IMG/VR virus record: IMGVR_UViG_3300042691_029560
Location: 1 to 64,000 of that record
Origin: a virus
Length of the DNA: 64,000 nt
Reading direction: 5' to 3' (one strand)
Shown: positions 48,381 to 64,000 of the stretch, piece by piece
Numbering within the stretch: position 1 is the stretch's first letter
Layout: each line of letters opens with the position of its first letter
The notes under the pieces: model-generated
Database searches by the model: none
What the model saw: the letters and a program-made list of their open reading frames with translations, nothing else
What the model was told of the DNA's origin: nothing
Made by a program: the position numbers and the translations under genes

Positions 48381-49499
48381 TTAACCGTGTACGAAATAGC
48401 CTAATGCAAATGCAAGAGCTGTATTAAATCCAGACTTGCCCTTAGACTGCCCGTAGATCCAAGCATCCTTGATCTGGCTAACGGCTTCATAGCCTTTTCC
48501 AGAGAATTCAGCAATATCTAGGACTGCATCATCATTACGCTTGTACTCGCCAGGCTTTCTAACAGTTACGGTTAGACCGTTTTTAACTGCAGCTGAAGCC
48601 ACAAGTGGGTCAATGCTTAGGGCCTTAGGGTGAGTATGAGGCAGCAAATCAGCGTCATCGGTTGAGAATGTTGTTAGCAACTTCTCACTACCAATCTGAG
48701 ACAAGAAGTTCTGTACTCGGCTAATTGCAAAGCGGTGGCGGGTTGTGCCTTCGGACATTTCACCAGCGTACTTTCTAGCTCCACGGCGGTAAACGGTCTT
48801 GCACTTAGCAAAAGTAGTCTTTAGGCCATCCTGAGCAGAAGCGTTGTAGTTGTCAACAAGTGATCGCAGCTCTGCTTCAACGTTGGTTGGAAGCACTAGT
48901 TCGCGAGAACGTCCAGATGCAAAGAATGCAGTTCCGTCTTGGTCATAACCATCTAGGAATGCAAGCTCGTCGTCCCAGCCGTCCTGAGAAATTGGAACTA
49001 TAGGAGACTCAACGTCAACAATCATAATTGTGCTAGTCGATGGGACCTGCATTCCTAGAGTTGCAGCCAACTGCCACTGCCACTTCTGGTGCATGTCTAT
49101 TCGCTCGGCAATAAAGTTTGCAACTCCCTGCTCATTGCAGCCATTTGCACAGTCAAAAGTCTGAACAAGGTGAGAGATAAGTTTACCGTTGACGTCAAGT
49201 AAAGACGAAACCATACGAGTCGGGTCGCTAGAGATTATCTTCTCTGGAACACAGGTCGCAAGGTCGTTGAACTCTGACATCATAAATGGAGCGTCAAAGC
49301 CGAGCTTGCGGATGTTCTCCGCCAGTGGGTCTAGCGATCCAGATACGTCTTCGTAAATGTCGCCAAAAAACTCGTGGAACTCTCTGAAGTCCATGCCTTT
49401 GACGTTCCAGTGATAGCCGTGAGAAACGTGATACATAACAGCAGCGTTTGCAAGTGCTGTAGATAGCTTGTCTCTTAGATCGGTTTTTGAGTGAGTCAT
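48381..49499 (-). CDS. dps: Dps/ferritin-like domain fused to a C-terminal phage domain
   Basis: H.YHWNVKG..F..FH.FF..IYE...D.LAE.IR.LG...HQKW.WQL Dps signature in the N-terminal ~150 aa; C-terminal VYRRG...RV.NF...DLLP..HP domain. Confidence 0.88.
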   Translation of the reverse strand: MTHSKTDLRDKLSTALANAAVMYHVSHGYHWNVKGMDFREFHEFFGDIYEDVSGSLDPLAENIRKLGFDAPFMMSEFNDLATCVPEKIISSDPTRMVSSLLDVNGKLISHLVQTFDCANGCNEQGVANFIAERIDMHQKWQWQLAATLGMQVPSTSTIMIVDVESPIVPISQDGWDDELAFLDGYDQDGTAFFASGRSRELVLPTNVEAELRSLVDNYNASAQDGLKTTFAKCKTVYRRGARKYAGEMSEGTTRHRFAISRVQNFLSQIGSEKLLTTFSTDDADLLPHTHPKALSIDPLVASAAVKNGLTVTVRKPGEYKRNDDAVLDIAEFSGKGYEAVSQIKDAWIYGQSKGKSGFNTALAFALGYFVHG

Positions 49500-52448: not shown

Positions 52449-52602
52449 GTGTACAGTTTATCAGAAGATGAGACATTGATTGCGGCTGTACTGTGCGTAA
52501 AAATGATACATTAACGTTTTTTGACTTTGGGCTGCGAGACGGCAACGCATGTTTTTCGCGTGCCGTCAAAACGTTTCCTGAATAATTCCTGAAAATCACA
52601 AG

Positions 52603-52621
52603 TTAGGTTAGGCTAACCTAA
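52603..52621. promoter_or_regulatory. DtxR/IdeR iron box 1
   Basis: TTAGGTTAGGCTAACCTAA, 19/19 match to the consensus TWAGGTWAGSCTWACCTWA. Confidence 0.85.
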
Positions 52622-52687
52622 GTTGTCTTGCGTGTAATGTGTGGGGGGTGGACGCAACTTCTAACGAACCAGACCAGACTTTATAAG

Positions 52688-52706
52688 TTAGGTTAGCCTA
52701 ACCTAA
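52688..52706. promoter_or_regulatory. DtxR/IdeR iron box 2
   Basis: TTAGGTTAGCCTAACCTAA, 19/19 match; reverse complement of box 1, 85 bp away. Confidence 0.85.
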
Positions 52707-52796
52707 CCAACTACAAACCTGACCAAGCCAAGCAAGTCATTTGGATACAAACAAAGCAACCCAAGCAAGTAGCATAACTTCCAACAGACTTCTAAC

Positions 52797-53103
52797 GAGC
52801 TGAGCTACGAGCTGAGCTACAAGCTAGCTATGAGCTGAGCTAGCTCAAAGCTACGAGCTGAGCTACGAGCTGAGCTACAAACTTCTAACGAGCTGAGCTG
52901 AGCTATGGGCTAGCTACTAGCTACGAGCTGAGCTTAGCTGAGCTATGAGCTACTAGCTATGAGCTGAGCTACGAGCTACAAGCTACGAGCTATGAGCTAC
53001 TAGCTATGAGCTGAGCTACGAGCCGAGCTGAGCTACGAGCTGAGCTGAGCTATGAGCTAGCTACTAGCTATGAGCTGAGCTGAGCTGAGCTACGAGCTAA
53101 GCT
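52797..53103. repeat. AGCT satellite, block 1
   Basis: Irregular tandem of GAGCT, GAGCTAC, GAGCTAT and TAGCT units; about 48 AGCT in ~307 bp. Confidence 0.95.
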
Positions 53104-53203
53104 AGCAAACTATCACCGCATCAACTTACAAAGTTCTATGGTGAAGCAGTAGTGATTAGTAATGACTAACAAACTTATTCCTGTCCGTCTAAACAACACA
53201 TAC

Positions 53204-53332
53204 GGATCCAAATGATAATAAAGCAATGATCAAATAAGCAAAGGCAAATAAATAATTGATCAACAATGATCACAAAGAGAGATCGTGATCAGCGATCATA
53301 AATAATGATCAAACCAATACAAATAACGATCC
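53204..53332. repeat. A-rich GATC cluster
   Basis: About 9 GATC (often TGATCA) in ~130 bp between the two AGCT blocks. Confidence 0.85.
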
Positions 53333-53344
53333 GTATGTCCGTGT

Positions 53345-53506
53345 ATGAGCTGAGCTATGAGCTGAGCTATCCAGCTATCCGTATGAGCTGAGCTATCAAC
53401 TTATAATGAGCTGAGCTATCCGTATGAGCTGAGCTATCAACTTATAATGAGCTGAGCTATCCGTATGAGCTGAGCTATGAGCTACAAGCTGAGCTGAGCT
53501 ATCCGT
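53345..53506. repeat. AGCT satellite, block 2, with a ~41-bp direct duplication
   Basis: About 19 AGCT; the unit ctatccgtatgagctgagctatcaacttataatgagctgag is repeated. Confidence 0.92.
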
Positions 53507-53508
53507 AT

Positions 53509-53551
53509 AAATAAATAATCCCCTATCAAGTTGATAAGGGATTATTTATTT
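53509..53551. terminator. Bidirectional intrinsic terminator
   Basis: AAATAAATAATCCC-CTATCAA-G-TTGATAA-GGGATTATTTATTT inverted repeat just after the 53561 stop. Confidence 0.8.
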
Positions 53552-53560
53552 AGATACAAA

Positions 53561-53899
53561 CTAACCGAATACTACATCGCCAAACAAAGCAACTTGGATA
53601 ATACAATCGGCGTCTTCGGCGTCATAATCAACATCGCTAGGGTCGCTAATAATCTGTTGGCATACTGCCTTAGTGTTGCTGTTGATAGATACTTCACCCG
53701 TAGCAAGTTTTTTGGCTGCGTCAAATAAGTCTTGATAGGTAATAGTTTTTGACGCCCAGCTCTCAACATACTCCGGCAATAGATACACCTTATAAGTTTG
53801 GCTGTCCGGATTATGCTGACCCTTGCTGACCCAATAGCCAATCCAATAGCCACCATCGTCAATAATGTTCTCAATCAGTTCTGCTGTTTCTTGATTCAC
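53561..53899 (-). CDS. Hypothetical early protein
   Basis: GAAAGGAA RBS; IGYW...DAEDADCIIQVALFGDVVFG. Confidence 0.8.
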   Translation of the reverse strand: MNQETAELIENIIDDGGYWIGYWVSKGQHNPDSQTYKVYLLPEYVESWASKTITYQDLFDAAKKLATGEVSINSNTKAVCQQIISDPSDVDYDAEDADCIIQVALFGDVVFG

Positions 53900-53936
53900 T
53901 AGATTTCCTTTCAGTAGTGATTACTAGATAACTATA

Positions 53937-54164
53937 CTACGCTTCGCACTGCCAGCAAGCACAATCGTTATCCCCATAGAGATAAACCCCGTGTTCGCAA
54001 TAATCAGTATTACGCTTCTGCTCTAACGCTTCGCCCATTTGATCAATACTAATGAGCAACCTTTCACTAGCGTTGCCTAGTGATAGTTTGCGATACGCTT
54101 CTTCCAAAGCATAACGCAAGGTTTCAGTGGAATAGTTTTTGTAAGGGTTTTCGGTGTTAGCCAT
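53937..54164 (-). CDS. Hypothetical protein with C-terminal CEHG...C..C metal motif
   Basis: GGAG RBS before MANTEN; Cys/His cluster. Confidence 0.7.
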   Translation of the reverse strand: MANTENPYKNYSTETLRYALEEAYRKLSLGNASERLLISIDQMGEALEQKRNTDYCEHGVYLYGDNDCACWQCEA

Positions 54165-54393
54165 TTTGCTCACCACACTTTCGGCAGTTAGTTTCTAGCG
54201 AATGGAAATAGTTTCCACATTGTTTTATTAGACCGAGCTTGGCTAATGTTCTAACTGCTCCTGCTAAACTAGCGACATTTTTACTAGCAACATCGTAAGG
54301 TCTAGCGTTAGCGATTTGCTCGGGTGTTCCAGCGTAGTTCCAACTAACAACATAGGTAAGCATTTTTCGTTGTTGCTGATTTAGTTTTAGCAC
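54157..54393 (-). CDS. Hypothetical early protein
   Basis: GAAAGGGAA RBS and promoter-like sequence upstream. Confidence 0.7.
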   Translation of the reverse strand: MLKLNQQQRKMLTYVVSWNYAGTPEQIANARPYDVASKNVASLAGAVRTLAKLGLIKQCGNYFHSLETNCRKCGEQNG

Positions 54394-54468
54394 TTAGGTT
54401 CCCTTTCCGTAGTGGTAAGTCAATGCTACTACATACAACCGACAAAGCAAGGGATTTATTCCCAGAGA

Positions 54469-55881
54469 TTATCTAACTTTAAAGATACCTTTTCTGGATC
54501 CACCAGCTTCGCTTCCACGGGGATTAGGTATCTTTCTACCAGCAACCGATCGGGCTGTAATCTTTCCACCTGTAAATCCCGACGGGGGTTTGATAAGCAA
54601 GGCAGTTAGGGCGTGAACCAGGGCGTCTACCCTGTCCGGTGATTTGCCTTCGCCAGGTATCCAAGAATACATCTGGCTTTCCAATGATCCGAGATAACCT
54701 ATGTGGTGAACCCTACCCTGCTCATAAGCCAATGTGACGGGTTCTGCTCTCAAGGCCTTTCCGTATTTGGAATGGACTTCTAATACTTTTATGTTTGGAT
54801 CTATTGTGTGGATCGCATTCTTCACCAATGCTCCACCTTGGTTCACTTCGGCTACAACAGGGCAACCCCACTTGCGAGCCATCTCTACAACCTTGTTAGC
54901 CCAAACATCGGGACTTCCGTGAACACTTGCGTCTTCCAATACCCAAGCTTGACGCTTGTATAAATCTCTCTCAGCAGTAGACGAAACTACGACAATCCCA
55001 CATTCATCTCTCGGGTTCTCAGCAACGCTAGGGTCAACACCAATGATCCGTAATGGAACGCCAAGTGGCATAGCACCTTGACGATACTGCTCAATCAGTT
55101 CTTCTGTCCACAAAGCACCCTCAACGCTATCTAACATCTCACCATAGATTTCTTGCTGAGCCAAGCGAGTTCCCTCATAAACACCCGTGATAGCGTCAAG
55201 ATAAGCACTAGATAAGTTCCCTGAGTTGTCCAATGTAGACCCACGAGTAATAACTACACGACCCGTCTTCGCTTCTTCTATCAACTTGTAAAGCAATGGA
55301 ACACGCTTCGGTGTTGTAGTGACCATAATCTTAGGATTAGATCCAAGACGAGTTCCAACACGCAAGTTATCAAAGGCAGTCATACCAGCTGCGTCTGGTG
55401 TCTGTCGCCAAGCAGCGATCTCATCTCCCCAAGCGTGAGTAAATTGTGGACCACGAAGCGAGTCTGGTTCATCTGCCGTGAAGCAAGTAGCAACATTTCC
55501 GTTAGGCCAAGTTAGTCTTCGCTTGGATGGTTCATACAAAGGTCTTTCACTAGGGGGAGTCACATTCATAATCCCCGACTCACCTTCTACGATTACATCT
55601 CTAACATCGGCAGCCGTTCTTGCGACTAATGCAAAGCGACGCTGTCCCGTAGTTGTATGCTTCGCTTCTTCACGAACCCATTCAGCAGCAGTTCTAGTCT
55701 TACCAGCACCACGACCAGCAATGTAAGCCCAAATGTTCCAATCACCAGCCGGGGTTTGCTGTTCAGGGCGACCCCAAGCAGACCAATCCCACATAAGCGT
55801 TTCCGGATCCATACCAGCCAATACTCTTGCTTGTTCTTCCGGAGATAGCAAAGCTATCTGTTCCATTAGGGACTTAGCCAT
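54469..55881 (-). CDS. terL: Terminase large subunit
   Basis: Walker A AGRGAGKT, LRGPQF, Walker B AWGDE, coupling motif TTTP, nuclease GVDPS and SPDRVDA. Confidence 0.95.
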   Translation of the reverse strand: MAKSLMEQIALLSPEEQARVLAGMDPETLMWDWSAWGRPEQQTPAGDWNIWAYIAGRGAGKTRTAAEWVREEAKHTTTGQRRFALVARTAADVRDVIVEGESGIMNVTPPSERPLYEPSKRRLTWPNGNVATCFTADEPDSLRGPQFTHAWGDEIAAWRQTPDAAGMTAFDNLRVGTRLGSNPKIMVTTTPKRVPLLYKLIEEAKTGRVVITRGSTLDNSGNLSSAYLDAITGVYEGTRLAQQEIYGEMLDSVEGALWTEELIEQYRQGAMPLGVPLRIIGVDPSVAENPRDECGIVVVSSTAERDLYKRQAWVLEDASVHGSPDVWANKVVEMARKWGCPVVAEVNQGGALVKNAIHTIDPNIKVLEVHSKYGKALRAEPVTLAYEQGRVHHIGYLGSLESQMYSWIPGEGKSPDRVDALVHALTALLIKPPSGFTGGKITARSVAGRKIPNPRGSEAGGSRKGIFKVR

Positions 55882-55891
55882 AAACTCCTAC

Positions 55892-56455
55892 TTACTCTTG
55901 GTCAATAATAACCCTGTTCTTATCTAGGATAGCAGAATACACTTGGCTCTTACCTGTCGTTTCTGTCTTATACCCGTATCTAGCAAGACGGAAACGAATA
56001 GCCCCGTGAGTAATCCCTAGCAACTTGGCTAAGCGATACACCGAAACTCCTTCTACTTCTACTGCCTTGTTTAGCAGATACGAGTATTCTTCGGCTTCCC
56101 TGCGATACTTCTTGCTATGAGAACGAACCTGTTGGGCTAGTGGTTGTAGTTCCACTAGGCGACTAAGCGTTTCATTACTAGGCAAGATAATAACTCTTGT
56201 AGATTTCACTACTTCGGGGGCGATAGGTGGTGTTGGTAGTGGAAACTCAACTGCCTTATCGGTATCAACGCTAGATTTGGCGATTTGCCTTGCTCTCTCT
56301 CTTGTAATCTCAAACGCAACGCCAATGCTCTCAAATGTCCAACCTAGACCCCTTAGAGCCTTTACATAGGCATCTCTAAGTTCTCTATCGGTGATACTTC
56401 TAGCAGTAGCGACTACTTCTTCGGGGATTTGGTGATTTTGCTTCACATAAGACAT
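55892..56455 (-). CDS. Double HTH DNA-binding protein (sigma region 4-like)
   Basis: GWTFESIG..FEITRERARQI and VSVYRLAKLLGITHGAIRFRL; directly upstream of terL. Confidence 0.8.
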   Translation of the reverse strand: MSYVKQNHQIPEEVVATARSITDRELRDAYVKALRGLGWTFESIGVAFEITRERARQIAKSSVDTDKAVEFPLPTPPIAPEVVKSTRVIILPSNETLSRLVELQPLAQQVRSHSKKYRREAEEYSYLLNKAVEVEGVSVYRLAKLLGITHGAIRFRLARYGYKTETTGKSQVYSAILDKNRVIIDQE

Positions 56456-56563
56456 AACTTTCTCCTTTTGTCGTGTGTATTTGTCTTTCTACAACATTAC
56501 AAGATAATAACGAGAAATGCCAACTCGCAAATGCGAATTGGCATTCCTTAGTAGCGAACAGAT

Positions 56564-57100
56564 CTATAAGACTACTCTTACATTAGGATCATTAGCAAAG
56601 ATCAGCTCAAATGTCTCGGCGTTGATCACGCCATCTCCCACTAGGCCACGATCAGCCTGGAACTGAGCGATCGCTGATTTAGTTACATCTCCGTAATACC
56701 CGTCTTTATCTTTCAGGGCTACAACATAACCAAGTTCATACAATCTTCGTTGTAAGTGGTGGATCGTTAGCGACTTGCGATTGTAGATGTTCTTGTAGAT
56801 ACACTTGTCCAAGAACACTTCATCAACTACGCCTAGTCCAACCACAGCTGGCCCTGCCGGGACAACTTCTTCTTGCTTGATAGGTGGAGCCGGAGTTGGA
56901 ACCATACCACCATCCGTGATCTCAATAACCGGAGCGATCTTTACCGGAATAGGATCTGGATCTACAACCGGCTCTTCTACCGGATCTACGACAGGTTCTT
57001 CTACCGGATCTTGATCAACAACCGGCTCTTGATCTACAACAAGATCATTAGTTAGATCCGGATCTTTATTTTCTTTATTATTTGCCACTGATTTCTCCAA
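56564..57100 (-). CDS. Peptidoglycan-binding domain protein with acidic Pro-rich N-terminal repeats
   Basis: LQRRLYELGY...DGYYG..TKSAIAQFQ...GL..DGVI...T (PG_binding_1 pattern); EPVVDP repeats. Confidence 0.85.
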   Translation of the reverse strand: MEKSVANNKENKDPDLTNDLVVDQEPVVDQDPVEEPVVDPVEEPVVDPDPIPVKIAPVIEITDGGMVPTPAPPIKQEEVVPAGPAVVGLGVVDEVFLDKCIYKNIYNRKSLTIHHLQRRLYELGYVVALKDKDGYYGDVTKSAIAQFQADRGLVGDGVINAETFELIFANDPNVRVVL

Positions 57101-57112
57101 TCTAATAAATGA

Positions 57113-57274
57113 TTACGCTCGCTGGGCAAGCAGAGCAAGTGAAATGCTTCCAAGACCTAAGACAACTGCGACAGCTGGATTAAAGAACGCAACGATCACA
57201 GCCAATCCTAGAAATACAACAGAAAAAATGGCCGGCCACACCAAATCACGCAACCGGATAAGCCAACTAGACAT
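57113..57274 (-). CDS. Small membrane protein, 2 TM (53 aa), not in the ORF track
   Basis: MSSWLIRLRDLVWPAIFSVVFLGLAVIVAFFNPAVAVVLGLGSISLALLAQRA. Confidence 0.7.
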   Translation of the reverse strand: MSSWLIRLRDLVWPAIFSVVFLGLAVIVAFFNPAVAVVLGLGSISLALLAQRA

Positions 57275-57275
57275 A

Positions 57276-57437
57276 CTAATCTTCTTTCTTCGGGGAAACT
57301 ACCCCAAGTAGAGTTTGTGGCTCCGGATCATTCTTCCGGGCCATACGATCAGCATACAGGAATAAGATCCCATAAGAGATCCCATTGATCAATAAGATCG
57401 ATCCAATGATCGCAAGTAAAAACCATAAAAGTTCCAT
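57276..57437 (-). CDS. Small membrane protein, 1 TM (53 aa), not in the ORF track
   Basis: MELLWFLLAIIGSILLINGISYGILFLYADRMARKNDPEPQTLLGVVSPKKED; TAATG coupling. Confidence 0.7.
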   Translation of the reverse strand: MELLWFLLAIIGSILLINGISYGILFLYADRMARKNDPEPQTLLGVVSPKKED

Positions 57438-57589
57438 TAGTCCACCAAATCTTCATCAAAAGTAGAATACCAATCATCTTTCTCAGATCCGTATAGGTAT
57501 AAAACCTTAGCAATCGGCAGCAGCACAGCTACGGCCAGGATCAAAAAGATAAACACCCCTAGGGTGAATAAAAGGATTGTAAGGATCAT
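57437..57589 (-). CDS. Small membrane protein, 1 TM (50 aa), not in the ORF track
   Basis: MILTILLFTLGVFIFLILAVAVLLPIAKVLYLYGSEKDDWYSTFDEDLVD; apparently little or no leader. Confidence 0.65.
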   Translation of the reverse strand: MILTILLFTLGVFIFLILAVAVLLPIAKVLYLYGSEKDDWYSTFDEDLVD

Positions 57590-57607
57590 AAAGAAATGAT
57601 ACCTTAG

Positions 57608-57641
57608 AAAAAACCCCCCTAGTTTATGACTAAGGGGGTTA
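57608..57641 (-). terminator. Intrinsic terminator
   Basis: AACCCCCTTAG-TCATAAA-CTAGGGGGGTT followed by TTTT on the minus strand. Confidence 0.8.
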
Positions 57642-57648
57642 TCTACTA

Positions 57649-57834
57649 CTAATCTCTATGCCTACGCCTAATAAATCTAGGCAATTCACTAATAGCAAGA
57701 ACCAAAGCACCAAAGATTAGCAATAGACCGAGAGATAGTCCAACAAACATAGAGTTTGTATGACCGAGATGCTCACCAAAGTAAAATCCCATAATCACCG
57801 AACTACAACCGAGAGCCATTAGTAAAAACTTCAT
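57649..57834 (-). CDS. Small membrane protein (2 TM)
   Basis: 61 aa, hydrophobic, AGGAG RBS. Confidence 0.7.
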   Translation of the reverse strand: MKFLLMALGCSSVIMGFYFGEHLGHTNSMFVGLSLGLLLIFGALVLAISELPRFIRRRHRD

Positions 57835-58040
57835 TAGTCATTTCTCCTTAGAGCATCAAACGCAAACAACAAAGTAAATCCTACACCGAGAACCATACCG
57901 AACCCAAAGTAATCGGCAAAGGTGTTTCCATTAGAACCAGCACCATAAGCGATTAGCATTACGCAACCAACCGAATAGACAAGTCCAACAAACGGAACAA
58001 TAACAATACCAGCAAGTAATCTACGAACAAAGAACTTCAT
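57834..58040 (-). CDS. Small membrane protein (2 TM)
   Basis: Start moved to MKFFVRR after the GAAAGGAG RBS. Confidence 0.7.
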   Translation of the reverse strand: MKFFVRRLLAGIVIVPFVGLVYSVGCVMLIAYGAGSNGNTFADYFGFGMVLGVGFTLLFAFDALRRND

Positions 58041-58102
58041 TTGTAATCTCCTTTCCTGAGATACTAAAAGTCTATACCACAATAAAGCAAACACACAAGT
58101 AT

Positions 58103-58240
58103 TTATTTAGACCACTTTTTAGGGCAGTCCATATGGAAATAGGTAATAAGAGCCTGAGTTGGATCGGTAGTAGTAGCACCACACCACATACAAGACCAGC
58201 TCTCTTTTTTAGACTTCTTAGGGGACTTACGATCTGCCAT
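58103..58240 (-). CDS. Small Zn-finger-like protein
   Basis: AAAGGAG RBS before MADRK; CMWC...H..C. Confidence 0.6.
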   Translation of the reverse strand: MADRKSPKKSKKESWSCMWCGATTTDPTQALITYFHMDCPKKWSK

Positions 58241-58251
58241 TAGTTTCTCCT

Positions 58252-58356
58252 TTACTTTTTGGCGTTTAGGTTGTGAGCAATCCAAGATAACTTATGAGCA
58301 ACGCTTACAAGCGTGCCACTAATACTTAGCAAGCGTTTAGCGATTTTCTTTTTCAT
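58252..58356 (-). CDS. 34-aa basic peptide, not in the ORF track
   Basis: AAGGAG RBS; MKKKIAKRLLSISGTLVSVAHKLSWIAHNLNAKK. Confidence 0.5.
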   Translation of the reverse strand: MKKKIAKRLLSISGTLVSVAHKLSWIAHNLNAKK

Positions 58357-58442
58357 TAGAACTCCTTGTGTTGTAAGTCTAGTGGATTAGGTGAGCAGTT
58401 TAGAACACTTGCTCAGGTGTTATCTCTTTCTATGAGATTGGC

Positions 58443-58673
58443 TTATGATAACTTTTCACCGAGAGCAGTTAGCAACTCGTAAGGTGAAACACGCAACTCT
58501 CGGCAAAGGGTAGCAAGCGTGTTTGACGGGATGTGTCGCTGATTGTGAAAGTATCGGCTAAGGCTAGACTTCTGTAAGCCCGTAGCGATTGCGAATTGGT
58601 TTAGGGATTGGTAGCCCTGACTTTCATACTGAGCAACGAACCACGCCCAAGTATCTACTTTTTTCTTTCCCAT
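58443..58673 (-). CDS. XRE/Cro-family HTH protein
   Basis: SLNQFAIATGLQKSSLSRYF...P...LATLCREL.VSPYELL. Confidence 0.85.
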   Translation of the reverse strand: MGKKKVDTWAWFVAQYESQGYQSLNQFAIATGLQKSSLSRYFHNQRHIPSNTLATLCRELRVSPYELLTALGEKLS

Positions 58674-58705
58674 TTTGTTTCTCCTTTTCTAATCGGGAAT
58701 AACTC

Positions 58706-58735
58706 AATCTAACCACAACTCAAACTTATTCGCAA
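58706..58735 (-). promoter_or_regulatory. Sigma70/SigA-type early promoter
   Basis: TTGCGA-N18-TAGATT upstream of an AAAAGGAG RBS. Confidence 0.6.
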
Positions 58736-58804
58736 GTTTATTTGTATCCGTGTTTGGATCGGTTTCCAGAGATCTCCAAGCTTCGGCCGGCCATAGCCTA
58801 GACA

Positions 58805-59329
58805 CTACCAACTCGGGTTAGTAGTGTCTAGGGCTAGCAACCACTCAACAAAGTTAGGGTTGAACAGAACTAACTCGTGTCGCTTCTCACGCATTAGGTC
58901 AATCGCTTCTTGGACTTGGTATCCGTCAAGCATTAGAACTATCGCCATAAGTAAGCCAGACCTATTTAGACCTGCTTGGCAACGGACTAGCACCTTTTCC
59001 CCAGACTTCCAATCAGTAAAGATGTTGTAAGCGATACGCATAAATGCTTTTTCATCAAAGTCAGTATCAGCACTATCAAAGTATCCGTATCTAAACTCTT
59101 TTACTAACCAATCAACAGGGTTAGCGTGAGCATAGAAAGTATAAACGCTATCAAAGTTTCGCTTCTTGATAGAGATTAGGGGTCTATCAAACTCGCAATG
59201 CTTATCACCAACTCGGTCATCATCATCAGTTCCACCTAGCCAAAGGTTAGGCAGTATCTCACTCCAAAGTTCAGGCTTGGTGAACTTCTTAGTTTTTGCT
59301 TCGTCATAAGATTTTTCGTAGTTATTCAT
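58805..59329 (-). CDS. Dual-specificity / protein tyrosine phosphatase
   Basis: EILPNLWLGG and catalytic loop VLVRCQAGLNRSG (CX5R). Confidence 0.9.
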   Translation of the reverse strand: MNNYEKSYDEAKTKKFTKPELWSEILPNLWLGGTDDDDRVGDKHCEFDRPLISIKKRNFDSVYTFYAHANPVDWLVKEFRYGYFDSADTDFDEKAFMRIAYNIFTDWKSGEKVLVRCQAGLNRSGLLMAIVLMLDGYQVQEAIDLMREKRHELVLFNPNFVEWLLALDTTNPSW

Positions 59330-59403
59330 TTTGTCCTTTCACTAACTACAACCTAAATACTATTTGATTTATTCCCGAGATTAGAAATAATTTTGGATCG
59401 TGT

Positions 59404-59571
59404 TTAGTCAAACTCCCGAATAGATTTTGACTTGTTAGCCAAGCGTGTTCTTGCTCGCTTGCTTCGCTTATCAGCGTGAACGCCACTAGCGTTAGAGCGT
59501 GAACGCTCACGCAACATAATCTCCAACGCCAAAGCTTCGGCATTACGCCTTGCCTTATTAGCCTTGTTCAT
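59404..59571 (-). CDS. Small very basic protein (55 aa), not in the ORF track
   Basis: GAAAGGAA RBS; MNKANKARRNAEALALEIMLRERSRSNASGVHADKRSKRARTRLANKSKSIREFD. Confidence 0.75.
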   Translation of the reverse strand: MNKANKARRNAEALALEIMLRERSRSNASGVHADKRSKRARTRLANKSKSIREFD

Positions 59572-59696
59572 TTTCATTCCTTTCCCGAATGGCAGACACT
59601 CTAATCCTATCAGTTAGGGCAGACATAGCAAGTGGCGTGTCGCGGCCACAGATCAACCGGCAGAGATCTCTACCGGATCTCCCGGCCGGTAGAGAT

Positions 59697-59729
59697 AATC
59701 CCCCTGGCGAATGATCCAGGGGGATTTTC
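59697..59729. terminator. Intrinsic terminator-like hairpin
   Basis: AATCCCCCTGG-cgaatgat-CCAGGGGGATT after the 59745 stop. Confidence 0.7.
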
Positions 59730-59744
59730 TAAGTCGGTGGCAGA

Positions 59745-59957
59745 TTAGATGTAATCGCTAAACGCTAGCAAAGGGTCAAAGGGTTCTGGCTTTTTCTTTA
59801 CTCGCATTTTCTCAACATAATCGCTGTCTTTCCATTGCTCGGCTCCACAAGACGGACAAAGTAGTTCACCCGTTCTAGTTAGCGATTGCTCCCCGTAGAA
59901 GTGTCCACAAGCAACACAATCAAAGATGTAGATGTAGTGTTTTCTAAACCCGAACAT
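59745..59957 (-). CDS. Zn-ribbon protein
   Basis: CVACG...CPSCG; GAAAGGAA RBS. Confidence 0.8.
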   Translation of the reverse strand: MFGFRKHYIYIFDCVACGHFYGEQSLTRTGELLCPSCGAEQWKDSDYVEKMRVKKKPEPFDPLLAFSDYI

Positions 59958-59969
59958 TAGTTTCCTTTC

Positions 59970-60125
59970 CTAGTAGTTTTCGTTTAGGTATTCCATAAGT
60001 TCAGTATAACTCTTTCCAAGAGAAATCAAACTAATAAGTTGCTCATCCATAGCAAGTAAGTTTATGTCTATCAAGCTCTCACCCGAAAGCATAAGTAAGA
60101 TTTTACCTACTGCTCCAATTCCCAT
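59970..60125 (-). CDS. Hypothetical protein (51 aa), not in the ORF track
   Basis: GAAAGGAA RBS; MGIGAVGKILLMLSGESLIDINLL...EYLNENY. Confidence 0.7.
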   Translation of the reverse strand: MGIGAVGKILLMLSGESLIDINLLAMDEQLISLISLGKSYTELMEYLNENY

Positions 60126-60283
60126 TTCAGTTCCTTTCCAGAGAATTCCAGCAATTCGTTTTTCTGCTCATCGGTGAGCATAGCAAACGCCATACCAGCA
60201 AGATACGCATAAGCGTTATCCTCTTTATCAGTTTTACCTGTCCTGATTAGGTTGTCGATAATTTGTTTTGCTAAAGTATCCAT
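60107..60283 (-). CDS. Hypothetical protein (58 aa), not in the ORF track
   Basis: GAAAGGAA RBS; MDTLAKQIIDNL...AYAYLAGMAFAMLTDEQK. Confidence 0.7.
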   Translation of the reverse strand: MDTLAKQIIDNLIRTGKTDKEDNAYAYLAGMAFAMLTDEQKNELLEFSGKELKWELEQ

Positions 60284-60295
60284 TTGGTTCCTTTC

Positions 60296-60487
60296 TTATT
60301 CGTTGTCTAGTTTATCAGGTTCATCGTAGTTATCGTGCCAGATTTCATCTGGTATCGCCCAAATAGTTTCTAACTCCATAAGTCGCTGGTTCAGCACTCT
60401 TAGGGTTTTGTTTTTTGGTTTTTCTAGCCAAGTTGGATCGTTTGTTATGTCGCTGATTACTGCCTTGTAAGCGTCTGCTAGTTCCAA
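60296..60487 (-). CDS. Hypothetical early protein
   Basis: GAAAGGAA RBS, TTG start. Confidence 0.7.
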   Translation of the reverse strand: MELADAYKAVISDITNDPTWLEKPKNKTLRVLNQRLMELETIWAIPDEIWHDNYDEPDKLDNE

Positions 60488-60564
60488 GGTTGTTTCCTTT
60501 CATCCGTGTATCTAAACATTACCACATTTGATTATTTTACAAAGTTTAGATCGATCGGTGTTGA

Positions 60565-60753
60565 TTATTTTTTTCTTTTCTTTTTATCGCCAATTGCGAC
60601 AATAATATCAACTTCGTAGAAGCGTTCTACAACTTCTCTTGCTGTTTCCCAAGTAGATAGTTCGATGTAAGTTCCATTGTGCATTTCCACAAGTTCATCA
60701 GCAAGGCGTTCTAGTAGTTCATCGCTACTTAGGTGTTTTACATACTTAGCCAT
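60565..60753 (-). CDS. Hypothetical early protein
   Basis: GAAAGGAA RBS; promoter-like TTGCCT-N18-TAAACT upstream. Confidence 0.75.
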   Translation of the reverse strand: MAKYVKHLSSDELLERLADELVEMHNGTYIELSTWETAREVVERFYEVDIIVAIGDKKKRKK

Positions 60754-60855
60754 TAGTTAGTTTCCTTTCGGGATTAGGGGTTTCAGTTTATAGCAAACTT
60801 GCGACATTAGGCAAGATTTATTCCGGCAAGTCTGGATCAAATTTGTAAAGCTTCT

Positions 60856-61026
60856 TTACTCCGGATTAGTCTGCTTCTTTAGAACTCTAACTCTCCGGCT
60901 AAGTCTAAGGTTAGGTTGGAATGGAATTAGTCCGGCGGCCATCGCCAGGTACACAAGTTCGTAAAGCTTCCGTGTCTGGAACTTGTCTAGTTCAGCGATC
61001 TGTTCAGGCGTTAGTTTAGTTCTCAC
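60856..61026 (-). CDS. Hypothetical protein (56 aa), not in the ORF track
   Basis: GTGA coupling with the upstream gene; MRTKLTPEQIAELDKFQTRKLYELVYLAMAAG... Confidence 0.55.
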   Translation of the reverse strand: MRTKLTPEQIAELDKFQTRKLYELVYLAMAAGLIPFQPNLRLSRRVRVLKKQTNPE

Positions 61027-61187
61027 TCTTGCTCACTCTCGTCAATAGGAAACGCTTGTCTAAACGCTTCATCTACTTCGGGGTCAAAGAGCCACTCCAA
61101 GAAACCCCTAACACCACTCTCGGTGTTCAGGTCAAACTTAGGGTTCAGTAGTGGGTTCTGGTCTGGGTCTGGGATTTGATTAGTCAT
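61023..61187 (-). CDS. Small acidic protein (54 aa), not in the ORF track
   Basis: GAAAGGAAG RBS; MTNQIPDPDQNPLLNPKFDLNTESGVRGFLEWLFDPEVDEAFRQAFPIDESEQE. Confidence 0.7.
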   Translation of the reverse strand: MTNQIPDPDQNPLLNPKFDLNTESGVRGFLEWLFDPEVDEAFRQAFPIDESEQE

Positions 61188-61220
61188 TTACTTCCTTTCA
61201 GTAAATAGAACCAAGTTTAT

Positions 61221-61418
61221 TTAGGATTTATTCCCGATTTGGATTTTATTTTTCAGTTGTCGCAACCTAATCCGTGTTGTCCCGTGGGTCTTACACCACT
61301 TCGGGTGCTTACACGGAACTAAGACAAGTCGCCTTTCGCCGAATGGGTCTTTATCTTTCAGTAGTCCAAGGGCAAACAATTCGGCTTTCTCGGCATCGCC
61401 TTTTTTCTCAACAAACAT
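61221..61418 (-). CDS. Hypothetical protein with C.HP.WC..HG motif
   Basis: Start moved to MFVEKK after the GAAAGGAAAG RBS. Confidence 0.65.
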   Translation of the reverse strand: MFVEKKGDAEKAELFALGLLKDKDPFGERRLVLVPCKHPKWCKTHGTTRIRLRQLKNKIQIGNKS

Positions 61419-61693
61419 AACTTTCCTTTCCAATAAAGATAACTCTATCAACCTTGGATTTATTCCCAAGTATTTCAATAAGTTTTGATCGGCCGGCCGG
61501 TGAGCTTAGCCACGCAGATACGGAAACACCCCCAACCAGAAAAATAGAGAAAACTAGTTAGGGGTGTTCCTTTATAGGAAAGGAAACTACTGACTTGGTG
61601 AAACATGAAAAACCAAGTCGGGCAAGTGAGATACTCTCGAACTTGCTTATTGCTAGGTTAGCAAATAAATAACAAAATAGCAACACCAAAAGC

Positions 61694-61724
61694 AAAAAAC
61701 CGTAGCAATTTAGCTACGGTTTTT
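61694..61724. terminator. Bidirectional intrinsic terminator
   Basis: AAAAAACCGTAGC-aattta-GCTACGGTTTTT after the NlpC/P60 stop. Confidence 0.8.
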
Positions 61725-61737
61725 CGCTGATTTGGAT

Positions 61738-62295
61738 CTATCCAGCAAACGCAGGTTTTTTGTTTGATACCTGATCAATGACCCTTACAAACCGGATCTG
61801 ACTATTTTTGTAGTCAGATAGTGGCTGTATGATCGTCGATCTTGCTCCGTAATGAGCGTTTATGATCTTTCCATTACCAATATAGATTGCTGAGTGGTAG
61901 AAGCTATGACTGCCCTTGTAGGCAAACACAACCACATCTCCAGCTCGGGGGTTGGACACACGCTTACCAATATGCGCTTGCTTATCGGCAGAATGAGGGA
62001 TTTCTAGGCCGAACCTTTGGTAGGTCCAGCGAACTAATCCTGAGCAGTCCCAACCCCTTGGAGAAGATCCGGAGAACACATAGGGTGTTACTCCAACCTT
62101 AGTCCGTAAGTATTTGATGACTTGCTTCATCCGGACAGTATTGCGATGAAGCTTCAACGGATCGTCAGAATACTTATTCGCAACACTATTTTTCTGATCC
62201 GAAACAACCATAGGTCTATGATCGTATCCGGACGCAGCTGATGAACATCCAACTAGCATTAGGAGCACACTAGTTATTGTGATGAACCTCTTCAT
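61738..62295 (-). CDS. NlpC/P60 cell-wall peptidase, predicted lipoprotein
   Basis: PYVFSGS...GWDCSGLV...H.AIYIGNG.IINA catalytic pattern; signal peptide with lipobox LVGC. Confidence 0.9.
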   Translation of the reverse strand: MKRFITITSVLLMLVGCSSAASGYDHRPMVVSDQKNSVANKYSDDPLKLHRNTVRMKQVIKYLRTKVGVTPYVFSGSSPRGWDCSGLVRWTYQRFGLEIPHSADKQAHIGKRVSNPRAGDVVVFAYKGSHSFYHSAIYIGNGKIINAHYGARSTIIQPLSDYKNSQIRFVRVIDQVSNKKPAFAG

Positions 62296-62440
62296 TTGGC
62301 GACCACCTTTCCTTGCGTTAGTACAGGTCGTTTATTGTCGGGTCTCCCGTCACATTGATCCGAAAACCAATGTGTCTAAATTATAAGGGCCAATTAGATC
62401 TACAAACAACATTTTTGATCAATTTTTCCGAAAAAATAGC

Positions 62441-62468
62441 AAAAACCCCTGGAAAACCAGGGGTTCTT
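62441..62468 (-). terminator. Intrinsic terminator
   Basis: AACCCCTGG-tttt-CCAGGGGTT-TTT on the minus strand. Confidence 0.8.
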
Positions 62469-62485
62469 ACATTGACCGGAGATTT

Positions 62486-62698
62486 CTACTCTGCCGGTGT
62501 GTTCTCGGCGATTTGCTCCTTGAGCCAAGCTAACGCAGCCTGCCGGCCCTTTACTCCGCGACCGAAAGTCTTGTAAGCGTCAATGTTGAGCAACCGGCCC
62601 AATGACTTCATAGCCGGTTCGCCAAAAGTCATCTTTCCGTCTGTGCTGATTTCAAACTCCAAGTTGATAACTAGGATTTCTGCCTGTAGTGAGTTCAT
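62486..62698 (-). CDS. Hypothetical early protein
   Basis: GAAAGGAA RBS. Confidence 0.75.
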   Translation of the reverse strand: MNSLQAEILVINLEFEISTDGKMTFGEPAMKSLGRLLNIDAYKTFGRGVKGRQAALAWLKEQIAENTPAE

Positions 62699-62806
62699 TT
62701 GATTTCCTTTCGCCTAACTACATAAAAAGCCTACACCAAAAACTAAAAAACACAAACATAAAAACATAAATAGATCTGTTTCTATGTTTGTGTCGTTTAG
62801 TGTTTG

Positions 62807-63022
62807 TTAGATACTCCACGCACCAAAGTCGGTATCGGCAGCGATACGCCTAGCGTTCATCCACGCACTTTCTCCATAAAAGTATGTGACTTTCTTGGTG
62901 ACTTTGTTTCTAACTTTCCAATAGTCTTGCTCGAATACCGCAGTTCCATAACTAACTTCCACTAGGTCGCTGTTATAAGCAACTGTCCATTCTTTCACTA
63001 GACTTACGCTTGGCTTAGCCAT
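62807..63022 (-). CDS. Hypothetical early protein
   Basis: GAAAGGAA RBS; K.TYFYGESAW..A.R motif. Confidence 0.75.
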   Translation of the reverse strand: MAKPSVSLVKEWTVAYNSDLVEVSYGTAVFEQDYWKVRNKVTKKVTYFYGESAWMNARRIAADTDFGAWSI

Positions 63023-63154
63023 TTAGTTTCCTTTCGGTTGATTATCGATAATCTGTGTAAATAGTTTATTGACTACCCTGTCCATATGGCAAGGGTCGCA
63101 TAGAAAAGATTCGCTCGGTAAAAGCTCCGTTCGGCAGTCTAAACAGGTTCGCAC
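63023..63154 (-). CDS. Small Zn-finger protein (43 aa), not in the ORF track
   Basis: MRTCLDCRTELLPSESFLCDPCHMDR...; fills the gap exactly. Confidence 0.6.
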   Translation of the reverse strand: MRTCLDCRTELLPSESFLCDPCHMDRVVNKLFTQIIDNQPKGN

Positions 63155-63339
63155 TATTTCAGCGCCTTTCTAGTCTTTCTTAGCGATACCAATTCCTTTA
63201 CATCGCTAATGCCGATATTGTCTAAGGCAGATACAACTTTGTAAGCAATTTCTAATGACTTGTGTTCGGTTGAGATAGGGGCTAATACTTTGGTCGCAAC
63301 TTTGGCAACAATCTTGGCAGTAATAATTTCGGCTAGCAT
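63154..63339 (-). CDS. Hypothetical early protein
   Basis: GAAAGGAA RBS and promoter. Confidence 0.7.
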   Translation of the reverse strand: MLAEIITAKIVAKVATKVLAPISTEHKSLEIAYKVVSALDNIGISDVKELVSLRKTRKALK

Positions 63340-63361
63340 TTATTTCCTTTCGTAGAATTAC

Positions 63362-63391
63362 AGACTACATTACACCTAAGACATTTCGCAA
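63362..63391 (-). promoter_or_regulatory. Sigma70/SigA-type early promoter
   Basis: TTGCGA-AATGTCTTAGGTGTAATG-TAGTCT. Confidence 0.7.
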
Positions 63392-63459
63392 CATTTCACC
63401 AAACTAAATTGGATCGTGTTGTAGAGATCTCTAAGCTTGGTGAGCAGATAGGCTACGGC

Positions 63460-63804
63460 CTATCTGTCGAAAACAGTATCTAAAAACTCTTGCTTTGTAT
63501 AGACAACTTCTCGATAGACAACATTTCCGTCGTCAGCAGAAATAATAATTGCTTCATTGTCGTCAGCGAAAAATCGGTTCTCTCCCACGCTAATACCGAA
63601 ACTTAGGTTTCCGTCATAGTTAGCCCGTGTAGAAAACTCATAGAAAAGTTGAGCAGTTAGATAAGCAGGGTCGCCAATTCTATCTGTTCTCGATAAAACA
63701 TCTACTACGGCAAGCACATTATCTGTTCCTGACCAGTGGCCGTAAAGGTGGATAGGTTCGATAAAGTCTTTGCTTGTTACAATAATTCTTGACCTGTCGC
63801 CCAT
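63460..63804 (-). CDS. Hypothetical early protein (MGDR...LY.HW.G type)
   Basis: 114 aa; GAAAGGAA RBS. Confidence 0.8.
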   Translation of the reverse strand: MGDRSRIIVTSKDFIEPIHLYGHWSGTDNVLAVVDVLSRTDRIGDPAYLTAQLFYEFSTRANYDGNLSFGISVGENRFFADDNEAIIISADDGNVVYREVVYTKQEFLDTVFDR

Positions 63805-63833
63805 TTGGATTTCCTTTCATTCGGGACACTAAA

Positions 63834-63862
63834 AGACTACACCTAACCTAAGACATTCGCAA
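63834..63862 (-). promoter_or_regulatory. Sigma70/SigA-type early promoter
   Basis: TTGCGA-ATGTCTTAGGTTAGGTG-TAGTCT (17-bp spacer); near-copy of the 63362 promoter. Confidence 0.7.
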
Positions 63863-63899
63863 GCGTGTCGCAAGCCGGCCGGAGCTGGATCAAAAAGTT

Positions 63900-63931
63900 G
63901 TCCCCCGTTAGGCGCTAACATAACGGGGGAC
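63900..63931. terminator. Terminator-like hairpin
   Basis: GTCCCCCGTTA-N10-TAACGGGGGAC. Confidence 0.65.
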
Positions 63932-64000
63932 TAATTTGGTCGTACACCTAAGCAGTTGTTGTGAACATTATTAAGTTATTTATACTTAGATGTTTGTCGC

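Follow-up and report, generated by a model that had tools for sequence, protein, structure and literature searches.

A 31-kb block purged of short palindromes in the genome of an uncultured freshwater actinophage, a possible imprint of restriction on the DNA first exposed in the host

The IMG/VR virus record IMGVR_UViG_3300042691_029560 is a single linear sequence of 92,713 bp whose long open reading frames all lie on the minus strand. Its first 64,000 nucleotides, referred to here as the window, include part of a genome block in which a set of four-base words is nearly absent. This block, also called the arm below, is contiguous, extends from ~52,600 to ~83,950 of the contig (~31 kb) and has two sharp borders; its share of the window is 52600-64000 (minus strand), as delimited by word counts, Markov observed/expected ratios and a codon-shuffle null. 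It contains ~70 short genes, most of them with their own promoter and terminator, and the terminase and lysis genes at its downstream end. The stretch 53,560-64,000, on which an original prediction had been made from the letters alone, is the downstream third of the arm. There, all on the minus strand, we find the terminase large subunit gene (TerL, 54469-55881), a gene with a weak helix-turn-helix (HTH) match which by its position is probably the small terminase (TerS, 55892-56455), a peptidoglycan-binding-domain protein (56564-57100), a Cro/C1-type HTH protein that is a candidate regulator (58443-58673), a dual-specificity phosphatase gene (58805-59329) and an NlpC/P60 peptidase gene (61738-62295). 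CheckV estimates the record as 54% complete and no terminal overlap was found in the 92,713-bp contig, which is a fragment.

The words nearly absent from the block are TTAA, ACGT, GTAC, ATAT, TGCA, CATG, GCGC, CGCG and the pair CCTC/GAGG. Observed over expected counts, calculated with a second-order Markov model, were 7/164 for TTAA, 7/60 for ACGT, 12/74 for GTAC, 21/101 for ATAT, 19/72 for GCGC, 27/88 for TGCA, 28/58 for CATG, 33/68 for CGCG and 17/107 for CCTC and GAGG together. In the other 61 kb the same words stand at 0.66-1.24 of their Markov expectation (0.8-1.1 for TTAA, ACGT, GTAC, ATAT and CCTC/GAGG); no selection of this kind acts outside the block. Taken together, the words occur at 0-15 per kb within the block versus 20-43 per kb on both sides, and this density steps from ~40 to 0-5 per kb at 52,571, the position of the last ACGT before the block, and at ~83,950. 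A codon-preserving null yielded z-scores of -5 to -12 for the avoided words. That the block is real is practically certain.

The ten most depleted 4-mers of the block are nine palindromes and CCTC/GAGG, the latter being low in both orientations. CCTC/GAGG is a known type of recognition sequence. Since CCTC and GAGG are both avoided, the selection acts on DNA and not on RNA or translation. The intergenic spacers of the block avoid the words too, with 5 TTAA versus 70 in dinucleotide shuffles. RNA- and translation-level explanations were rejected because the spacers and both orientations of CCTC/GAGG are purged as well; an explanation of the purged palindromes by purine/pyrimidine alternation was abandoned on account of TTAA, which is purged, and of TATA, which is affected only mildly. 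Type II restriction enzymes typically recognise sequences such as the avoided words, and restriction is very probably the selective agent on the block. The avoidance seems to have reshaped the Shine-Dalgarno sequence itself: GAGG occurs in this role in 0 of 68 block genes versus 10 of 45 genes elsewhere. Half of the block genes have a ribosome-binding site (RBS) of the form AAAGGA[AT], the RBS of the block mostly read GAAAGGAAA, and GGAGG-type sites are found outside it.

These counts were examined at closer range in the stretch 53,560-64,000, where the original prediction had described genes almost free of four-base palindromes alternating with spacers packed with GATC, CCGG, GGCC and AGCT. 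Exact counting bears out the description of the individual genes. The probable small terminase gene contains 9 CTAG and 1 TATA and the phosphatase gene 4 CTAG and 1 TATA, with no other four-base palindrome in either, and the segment 57649-58040 has 1 AATT and 1 CTAG only. Similarly, TerL is devoid of ACGT, GTAC, CATG, GCGC, CGCG and ATAT, a single TTAA and a single TGCA being left. We shuffled synonymous codons 500 times in the 28 genes of this stretch and the depletion held: ACGT was observed 0 times against a null mean of 21.7 (z -6.8), TTAA 2 times against 28.6 (z -7.4), GTAC 0 against 19.0, CATG 0 against 8.2, CGCG 1 against 14.0, TGCA 2 against 15.3, ATAT 6 against 23.8 and GAGG 4 against 24.0, and for none of these words did any of the 500 shuffles reach the observed value. 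Two further statements need narrowing. The genes had been called early, which is right for part of the stretch, the remainder being terminase and lysis genes. They had also been said to exclude the four spacer words, which some do, although TerL carries 9 GATC, 4 AGCT, 4 CCGG and 2 GGCC, the peptidoglycan-binding-domain gene 17 GATC and 9 CCGG, with a repeated linker rich in both words inside its coding sequence, and the NlpC/P60 gene 9 GATC. Thus, the pattern is real, yet the region described was only its edge, and the sharp division of the genome into an avoiding and a non-avoiding part had been missed.

The source phage is an uncultured freshwater actinophage. Its TerL is 78% identical to that of the lake phage DSL-LC01, an Actinomycetia phage, and 60-64% identical to the terminases of large Microbacterium phages, and relatives are encoded on more than 400 IMG/VR contigs. 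The clues to the host are limited to this apparent actinobacterial affinity of the TerL relatives and to the lake origin of the metagenomes. A 6-kb piece of the genome, spanning the border of the block at ~83,950 (the start border), was recovered near word-for-word from 20 sequencing runs belonging to 17 lake or freshwater studies dated 2017-2025; the phage is therefore a widespread natural one and no construct. The same recurrence, together with a 3.7-kb contig of an independent study that bridges the start border, leaves hardly any room for the idea that the record is an assembly chimera of two phages. The distal border, at ~52,600, is likewise spanned in the relatives L006, L009, L012, L042 and others with the gene order kept (TerL, then portal). 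What could have nourished the idea is a frequent break in the contigs of relatives, 0.2-4 kb downstream of TerL, in a place where tandem arrays lie. Among the TerL relatives L007-L085, ~55 of 80 contigs end at most ~4 kb downstream of TerL and almost all reach 10 kb upstream; such breaks may reflect tandem arrays, hypervariability or a physical end.

The avoidance is not only inherited. The closest relative, L006, has the same block, and over a 5-kb aligned segment it differs from the source phage by 1,017 substitutions (~20% nucleotide divergence). When the substitutions were randomly reassigned among the same columns in 500 trials, 79-83 avoided words were expected (minimum 52), while the real sequences contain 10 and 6. 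Both lineages have therefore kept purging since they diverged, and selection against at least nine short words is continuing. The promoter-gene-terminator cassettes between 54400 and 66000 are ~75-80% identical to those of L006 and stand in a different order, which indicates cassette shuffling.

We compared the densities of eight palindromes on the two sides of TerL in 18 dereplicated TerL-centred loci of relatives, and the avoided words in 48 dereplicated loci centred on the AAA-ATPase gene near the start border. At least 3-fold fewer sites on the early than on the structural side were found in 6 of the 18 loci and 1.5-3-fold fewer in 4, with no reversed case. For the AAA-ATPase loci, sites in the arm were reduced at least 3-fold relative to the upstream side in 9 of the 48 and 1.5-3-fold in 11, again with no reversal of at least 3-fold. 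The AAA-ATPase gene always has the start border 0-2 kb upstream of it, in relatives whose AAA-ATPase identity is only 51-83%, and no conserved sequence was found at this border across distant relatives. Depletion is usually strongest adjoining the block start, and the block length varies: ~16 kb in G007, 20 kb in G006, 15-22 kb in G001 and 31 kb in the source phage. In L174/G006, ~13 palindromes are at zero over ~18 kb, and in L042 the density falls to 0-1 sites per kb over 11 kb. G006 and G007 have also purged GATC, AGCT, CCGG and GGCC within the block. A three-regime model, in which the arm would avoid all words, the structural part these four and the rest none, was dropped as a general rule: such a pattern is seen in some relatives only, and the structural part of G006 and G007 is normal. 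Other relatives range from no avoidance to avoidance over the whole genome. DSL-LC01 (L001-L003, OQ999401.1; 129 kb, 53% GC) has 0 TTAA and 0 ATAT with its other palindromes normal, and the 135-kb G005 (L194-L200) has 0 GATC, 0 AGCT and one copy of ACGT genome-wide. G005 also shows an extra block at 70-85 kb that lacks ATAT and GTAC and in which AATT is nearly gone. No similar block was detected in the soil relatives Gordonia phage Sixama and Microbacterium phage A3Wally, within the first 50 kb of each record.

This variation invites an explanation by mosaicism, in which the arm is a relic of an ancestor that avoided the words genome-wide and the structural and other modules were swapped in from phages protected otherwise. 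The group is strongly mosaic, as the cassette order and the spectrum from no to genome-wide avoidance illustrate, and G001 has a TerS-TerL island that is not depleted. In addition, a contig of run X14 matches the upstream side of the start border (~83,881; L201:8881) and then, on the block side, continues into unrelated sequence containing ATAT and TGCA; this strain variant has another junction precisely at that border. However, a relic would not account for the 10 and 6 sites kept instead of ~80 after ~20% divergence, nor for an asymmetry that runs one way in 15 cases of at least 3-fold with none reversed, nor for a start border conserved in spite of the divergence of the AAA-ATPase. Furthermore, a recombinant in which 61 kb carried ~40 unprotected sites per kb would be expected to have low fitness if those 61 kb were not shielded, which leads back to a functional split between the two parts of the genome. 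We therefore regard a mosaic relic as unlikely.

The distal border is a 961-bp non-coding region (52600-53560) in which two AGCT(C) tandem arrays flank an AT-rich TGATCA cluster. The first array (52795-53104) has a period of 12 and 26 copies, with an AGCT every 5-7 bp; the AT-rich stretch (53205-53332) contains 9 GATC, mostly in a TGATCA context; the second array (53344-53510) is made of 3.3 copies of a 41-nt unit. A terminator-like hairpin read from the sequence at 53510-53555 (minus strand) closes the last transcription unit of the block. At the same position L006 has the same kind of AGCT(C) array together with a TGATCA array, and G001 has a CAGGCT array; none was found in L042 and L053. 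The AT-rich stretch resembles an origin or a packaging (pac) site, and the border as a whole could serve as an origin, for packaging or for stopping entry. The segment 52600-53560 also has two 19-bp palindromes, of the form TTAGGTTAGSCTAACCTAA, which resemble actinobacterial IdeR/DtxR boxes.

The palindromes GATC, CCGG, AGCT and GGCC are distributed in another manner. The arm contains 157, 118, 93 and 55 copies of them, respectively, TerL and lysis genes included, and the other 61 kb 303, 136, 399 and 107, at or above expectation. Being frequent across the genome, they are evidently harmless to the source phage. Within the block their density in spacers is 4-7 times that in genes, compared to a ratio of ~0.7-2 in the structural part. 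The block genes are below the codon-shuffle null (58 GATC versus 96, 34 AGCT versus 94, 14 GGCC versus 42) and the block spacers above the dinucleotide null (95 GATC versus 28.7, z 13.8; 74 CCGG versus 29, z 9.1; 58 AGCT versus 33, z 4.7). In the stretch 53,560-64,000, the five spacer strings quoted in the original prediction are present as written, with 3-9 of the four sites per 18-50 bp. Against dinucleotide shuffles the stacking is significant there for GATC (26 versus 7.2, z 7.7), CCGG (18 versus 5.8, z 6.0) and GGCC (12 versus 5.8, z 2.8) but not for AGCT (7 versus 8.0), whose enrichment appears only over the whole block. The top eight spacer/coding ratios among the 136 strand-collapsed 4-mers all belong to palindromes, and an equal patchiness of non-palindromic words is therefore rejected. 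The earlier wording "not simple avoidance" was apt, as one set of words is purged and a second one gathered in the spacers.

It had been proposed that the gathered sites serve as sacrificial or decoy targets guarding the cassettes. Apart from the clustering itself nothing favours this idea. The same words are frequent in arm genes, the other 61 kb have as many of them as expected or more, a cut between two cassettes is still a double-strand break that breaks the genome, and the sites form ordered longer motifs tied to promoters. We consider decoys very improbable.

These motifs have a constant layout. Counted from the RBS, CCGG and GGCC occupy positions -150 to -91, AGCT -110 to -71 and GATC -110 to -51, and only 5 of the 279 sites counted lie from -50 onward to the RBS. 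AGATCT is found in spacers for 27 of its 28 block copies, mostly as cAGAGATCTCTg; its spacing along the genome does not differ from random. The recurrent motifs are AGAGATCTCT (9 copies), CCGGCCGG (11 copies, and 16 together with its variant GGCCGGCC), AAGCTT (17 copies) and GATCCAAA(CACGC) (13 copies). Read on the coding strand, a typical spacer is composed of a terminator hairpin, CCGGCCGG, AAGCTT, AGAGATCTCT, GATCCAAACACGC, a -35 box, a -10 box and the RBS. The recurrent promoter reads TTGCGA...TATAAACT, of the type TTGCGA-N17-TATAAA, with the consensus TTGCGAAATGTC-N10-TGCTATAAACT, and is predicted to be a sigma-A-type early promoter. Matches to the promoter pattern on the coding strand number 29 in the arm versus 5 in the structural part, and AAAGGA[AT] ribosome-binding sites 35 versus 2.

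Within the window this layout is found in spacers of the minus strand. In the spacer 58674-58804, GGCCGGCC, AAGCTT, GAGATCTC and GATCCAAACACG precede a promoter with -35 TTGCGA (58735-58730) and -10 TAGATT (58711-58706), followed by the RBS AAAGGA. The spacer 59544-59744 contains a terminator hairpin, CCGGCCGG, AGAGATCTCT, TTGATC, -35 TTGCTA (59631-59626), a -10 box and an RBS. In 60754-60855, AAGCTT, GATCCA and CCGG are followed by -35 TTGCCT (60814-60809), TGC-TATAAACT with the -10 box at 60790-60785, and an RBS. Two hairpins lie in the spacer 61479-61737, whose promoter-proximal end has the string AGCTCACCGGCCGGCCGATCAAA. In 63340-63459 the order is AAGCTT, AGAGATCTCT, GATCCAA, -35 TTGCGA (63391-63386), -10 box and RBS, and the last spacer, which runs past the window edge (63805-64000), contains a terminator hairpin, GATCCAGCTCCGGCCGGC, -35 TTGCGA (63873-63868) and an RBS. 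The densest accumulation of sites in the contig lies further on, in the spacer at 64726-65384 of the genome, with ~22 GATC, AGCT, CCGG or GGCC sites in ~130 nt. Outside the block, in the coding sequence of window 1-52600 and genome 84000-92713, AGATCT is also in excess, with 46 copies versus 22 in the codon null (z 5.2, ~2-fold), and there it lacks the extended AGAGATCTCT context seen in the spacers.

The four palindromes, the only ones tolerated in this sub-lineage, would thus be the building blocks of promoter-upstream modules, within the motifs CCGGCCGG/GGCCGGCC, AAGCTT, AGAGATCTCT and GATCCAAACACGC. Ordered and partly palindromic motifs of 10-13 bp at a fixed distance from a promoter are probably binding sites of a regulator, and we lean towards reading the spacers as putative sites for regulatory proteins. 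Among the options of the original prediction (decoys, methylation marks, protein-loading sites), protein loading appears to fit best the fixed order and distance upstream of a conserved promoter. Sister lineages that avoid the four words have the same promoter with no upstream module; the module was therefore added in the sub-lineage to which the four words do no harm. Actinophages have operator or "stoperator"-type repeats, short conserved and partly palindromic motifs found at many gene boundaries near promoters. The motifs of the source phage differ from these in using no palindromes other than the four tolerated ones, in keeping a set order ahead of the -35 box, and in being absent from sister lineages that share the promoter.

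Alternatively, the spacer sites might be methylation-sensitive switches, host methylation of GATC, AGCT, CCGG and GGCC tuning the early promoters according to whether the DNA is incoming or replicated. Dam methylation is known to tune some sites of E. coli and P1. The four words are exactly those which sister lineages exclude from their genomes or blocks (0 GATC and 0 AGCT in G005), and this exclusion suggests that they are real restriction-modification (R-M) specificities in the host range. The sites also stand at fixed positions upstream of the promoters, and a TGATCA cluster lies at the border. On the other hand, conserved motifs of 10-13 bp point to sequence-specific binding and not to 4-bp marks, and no methyltransferase was found in the phage clade: the DNA methyltransferase families PF01555, PF00145, PF02086, PF05869 and PF02384 are absent from the contig (54% complete) as well as from G001 (100% complete), G002 and G003. 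With these five families missing, the idea is left to host enzymes alone, and we judge it quite improbable. Self-methylation by the phage as the reason for tolerating the four words received no support from this five-family search. The conjecture that lineages tolerating GATC, AGCT, CCGG and GGCC carry methyltransferases was rejected, none being present in G000-G003, while the avoiders G004 and G005 have PF01555.

A different way to obtain two unequal parts would be a region-specific shielding that involves no ordered entry. The non-depleted part would be protected by DNA modification or by a co-injected coat, the arm, kept bare for the host RNA polymerase, then having to lose its sites. This explanation is favoured by a 1690-aa "polyvalent" protein of the virion module (32950-38022, minus strand), which has two ArdC-N anti-restriction domains and two zincin "MPTase-PolyVal" peptidase domains together with an ADP-ribosyltransferase exoenzyme domain and a Tc-38 domain, and which is probably delivered along with the DNA. 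For the phage P1, delivery of Dar proteins of the polyvalent type with the DNA is established (cited in PMC12455610). The borders of the block are nevertheless sharp to a few hundred bp, and no mechanism known to us would confine a replicative modification, or a coat injected with the DNA, so sharply to a single contiguous two-thirds of a genome. The missing DNA-modification genes count against modification as well, weakly so in a contig that is 54% complete. Shielding without ordered entry is, in our view, quite unlikely.

We rather propose that the arm is exposed to host type II restriction at a time when the phage countermeasures do not yet act. The arm would be the first part of the genome inside the cell, its leading end lying at ~83.95 kb, immediately upstream of the AAA-ATPase gene, and only later would the remainder follow or become accessible. 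Entry order would agree with a contiguous block having a conserved start, short genes, promoter and RBS types confined to it, genes that all point away from the start border, and a repeat-rich inner border. We give even chances to order of entry being the reason for the block.

The closest model is provided by the T5-like phages, in which R-M systems of types I, II and III take effect only through sites in the first-step-transfer (FST) region, and in which the border between the FST and second-step-transfer (SST) regions is repeat-rich and non-coding (PMC10644984; T5 record annotation). The T5 segment has short host-takeover genes with host-type promoters, the rest of that genome carrying sites and yet being resistant, and the 0.96-kb repeat-rich non-coding border described above is located where T5 has its injection-stop region (iss). 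The two differ in size, T5 having ~10 kb inside a terminal repeat and the present lineage a block of 16-31 kb, and in breadth, with as many as 13 four-base palindromes absent or nearly so in the latter. No A1/A2 homologues are recognised in the source phage, whose two-step entry and terminal position of the block are putative. In the T7-like Murciavirus, only motifs in the first-injected region matter, and its authors propose that restriction filters phages at a sub-genomic scale with selection on the leading region (PMC12455610). Murciavirus genes are co-oriented with entry, and in the source phage, too, every gene points in one direction, beginning at the start border. The Murciavirus case has been proven experimentally and involves a single type I motif in a podovirus of 40 kb; ours concerns a multi-word, type II-like signature in siphovirus-like genomes of more than 90-150 kb and is computational only. 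As to avoidance over whole genomes, Rusinov and colleagues are said to have reported in 2018 that short palindromes are under-represented in phages relative to composition-aware nulls. The relatives DSL-LC01 and G005 show palindrome avoidance of this genome-wide kind; in the source phage, by contrast, it is limited to one sharp-bordered block with the rest at expectation. Seen against these systems, the block appears to match leading-region or FST avoidance in kind and to be new in its magnitude, in the breadth of words and in its taxonomic setting.

Several results weigh against an arm that enters first. No physical genome end was found, only contigs being available and three raw-read runs having no reads of the phage, and the "direct terminal repeats" given by IMG/VR for relatives are 103-bp assembly overlaps, the assemblies themselves being circular overlaps or fragments. 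It is because the position of the physical ends was not obtained that we place entry order no higher. The arm, at 31 kb, is three times the T5 FST and includes terminase and lysis genes, which are normally late. In G001 (100% complete) and its kin, the TerS-TerL island stands at normal word density inside the depleted zone and recurs in several samples; depletion is therefore not strictly required everywhere. The 4-mer signal of the T5 FST is faint (observed/expected 0.5-1.2), which makes the analogy one of kind and not of magnitude. Searches with Pfam, PHROG and PADLOC detected no known anti-restriction protein among the first genes of the arm, whose matches are an AAA_5 ATPase and a weak, below-cut-off VWA, most of these genes having no known family. 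A conserved trio, coding for a 161-aa protein, the AAA-ATPase and the VWA protein, stands at the start of the arm. Finally, a scan of the stretch for the generic sigma-70 consensus showed no enrichment (12 versus 18.8 in shuffles), so that the promoters are deduced from the recurrent motif and its fixed position only. Taking the block, restriction, entry order and spacer regulation together, we find the balance of arguments for and against the whole to be even.

More tentatively, and with a likelihood that we place below even, this abundant lake actinophage lineage could deliver its genome in two steps or at a controlled pace, and its sequence could keep the record of that entry. The start of the block would then be the leading end, and its length (16-31 kb) the amount of DNA inside the cell before restriction is neutralised. 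The repeat arrays of the inner border would mark a pause in entry. The purged and the tolerated words would reflect the restriction repertoire of the uncultured hosts, and the four tolerated palindromes would have been recruited into promoter-upstream binding arrays.

Selection on first-entering DNA is experimentally established for T5-like and some T7-like phages, for one or a few sites, and is barely visible there in sequence statistics. Here, if the proposal is true, it would have produced an extreme signature in phages known from metagenomes alone, as many as 13 of the 16 four-base palindromes being absent or nearly so over 10-20 kb beside DNA at expectation; avoidance studies based on genome-wide averages can overlook such strong local signals. 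If true, it would also offer a computational way to locate the leading end and the extent of the first-step DNA in uncultured phages. Candidate broad anti-restriction genes, expected inside the block, could then be located, and the restriction specificities circulating in dominant freshwater Actinobacteria could be inferred from the words themselves.

Outside the block, a ferritin/Dps-like domain protein (48381-49499, minus strand) is encoded within the head module, adjoining a portal-like gene.

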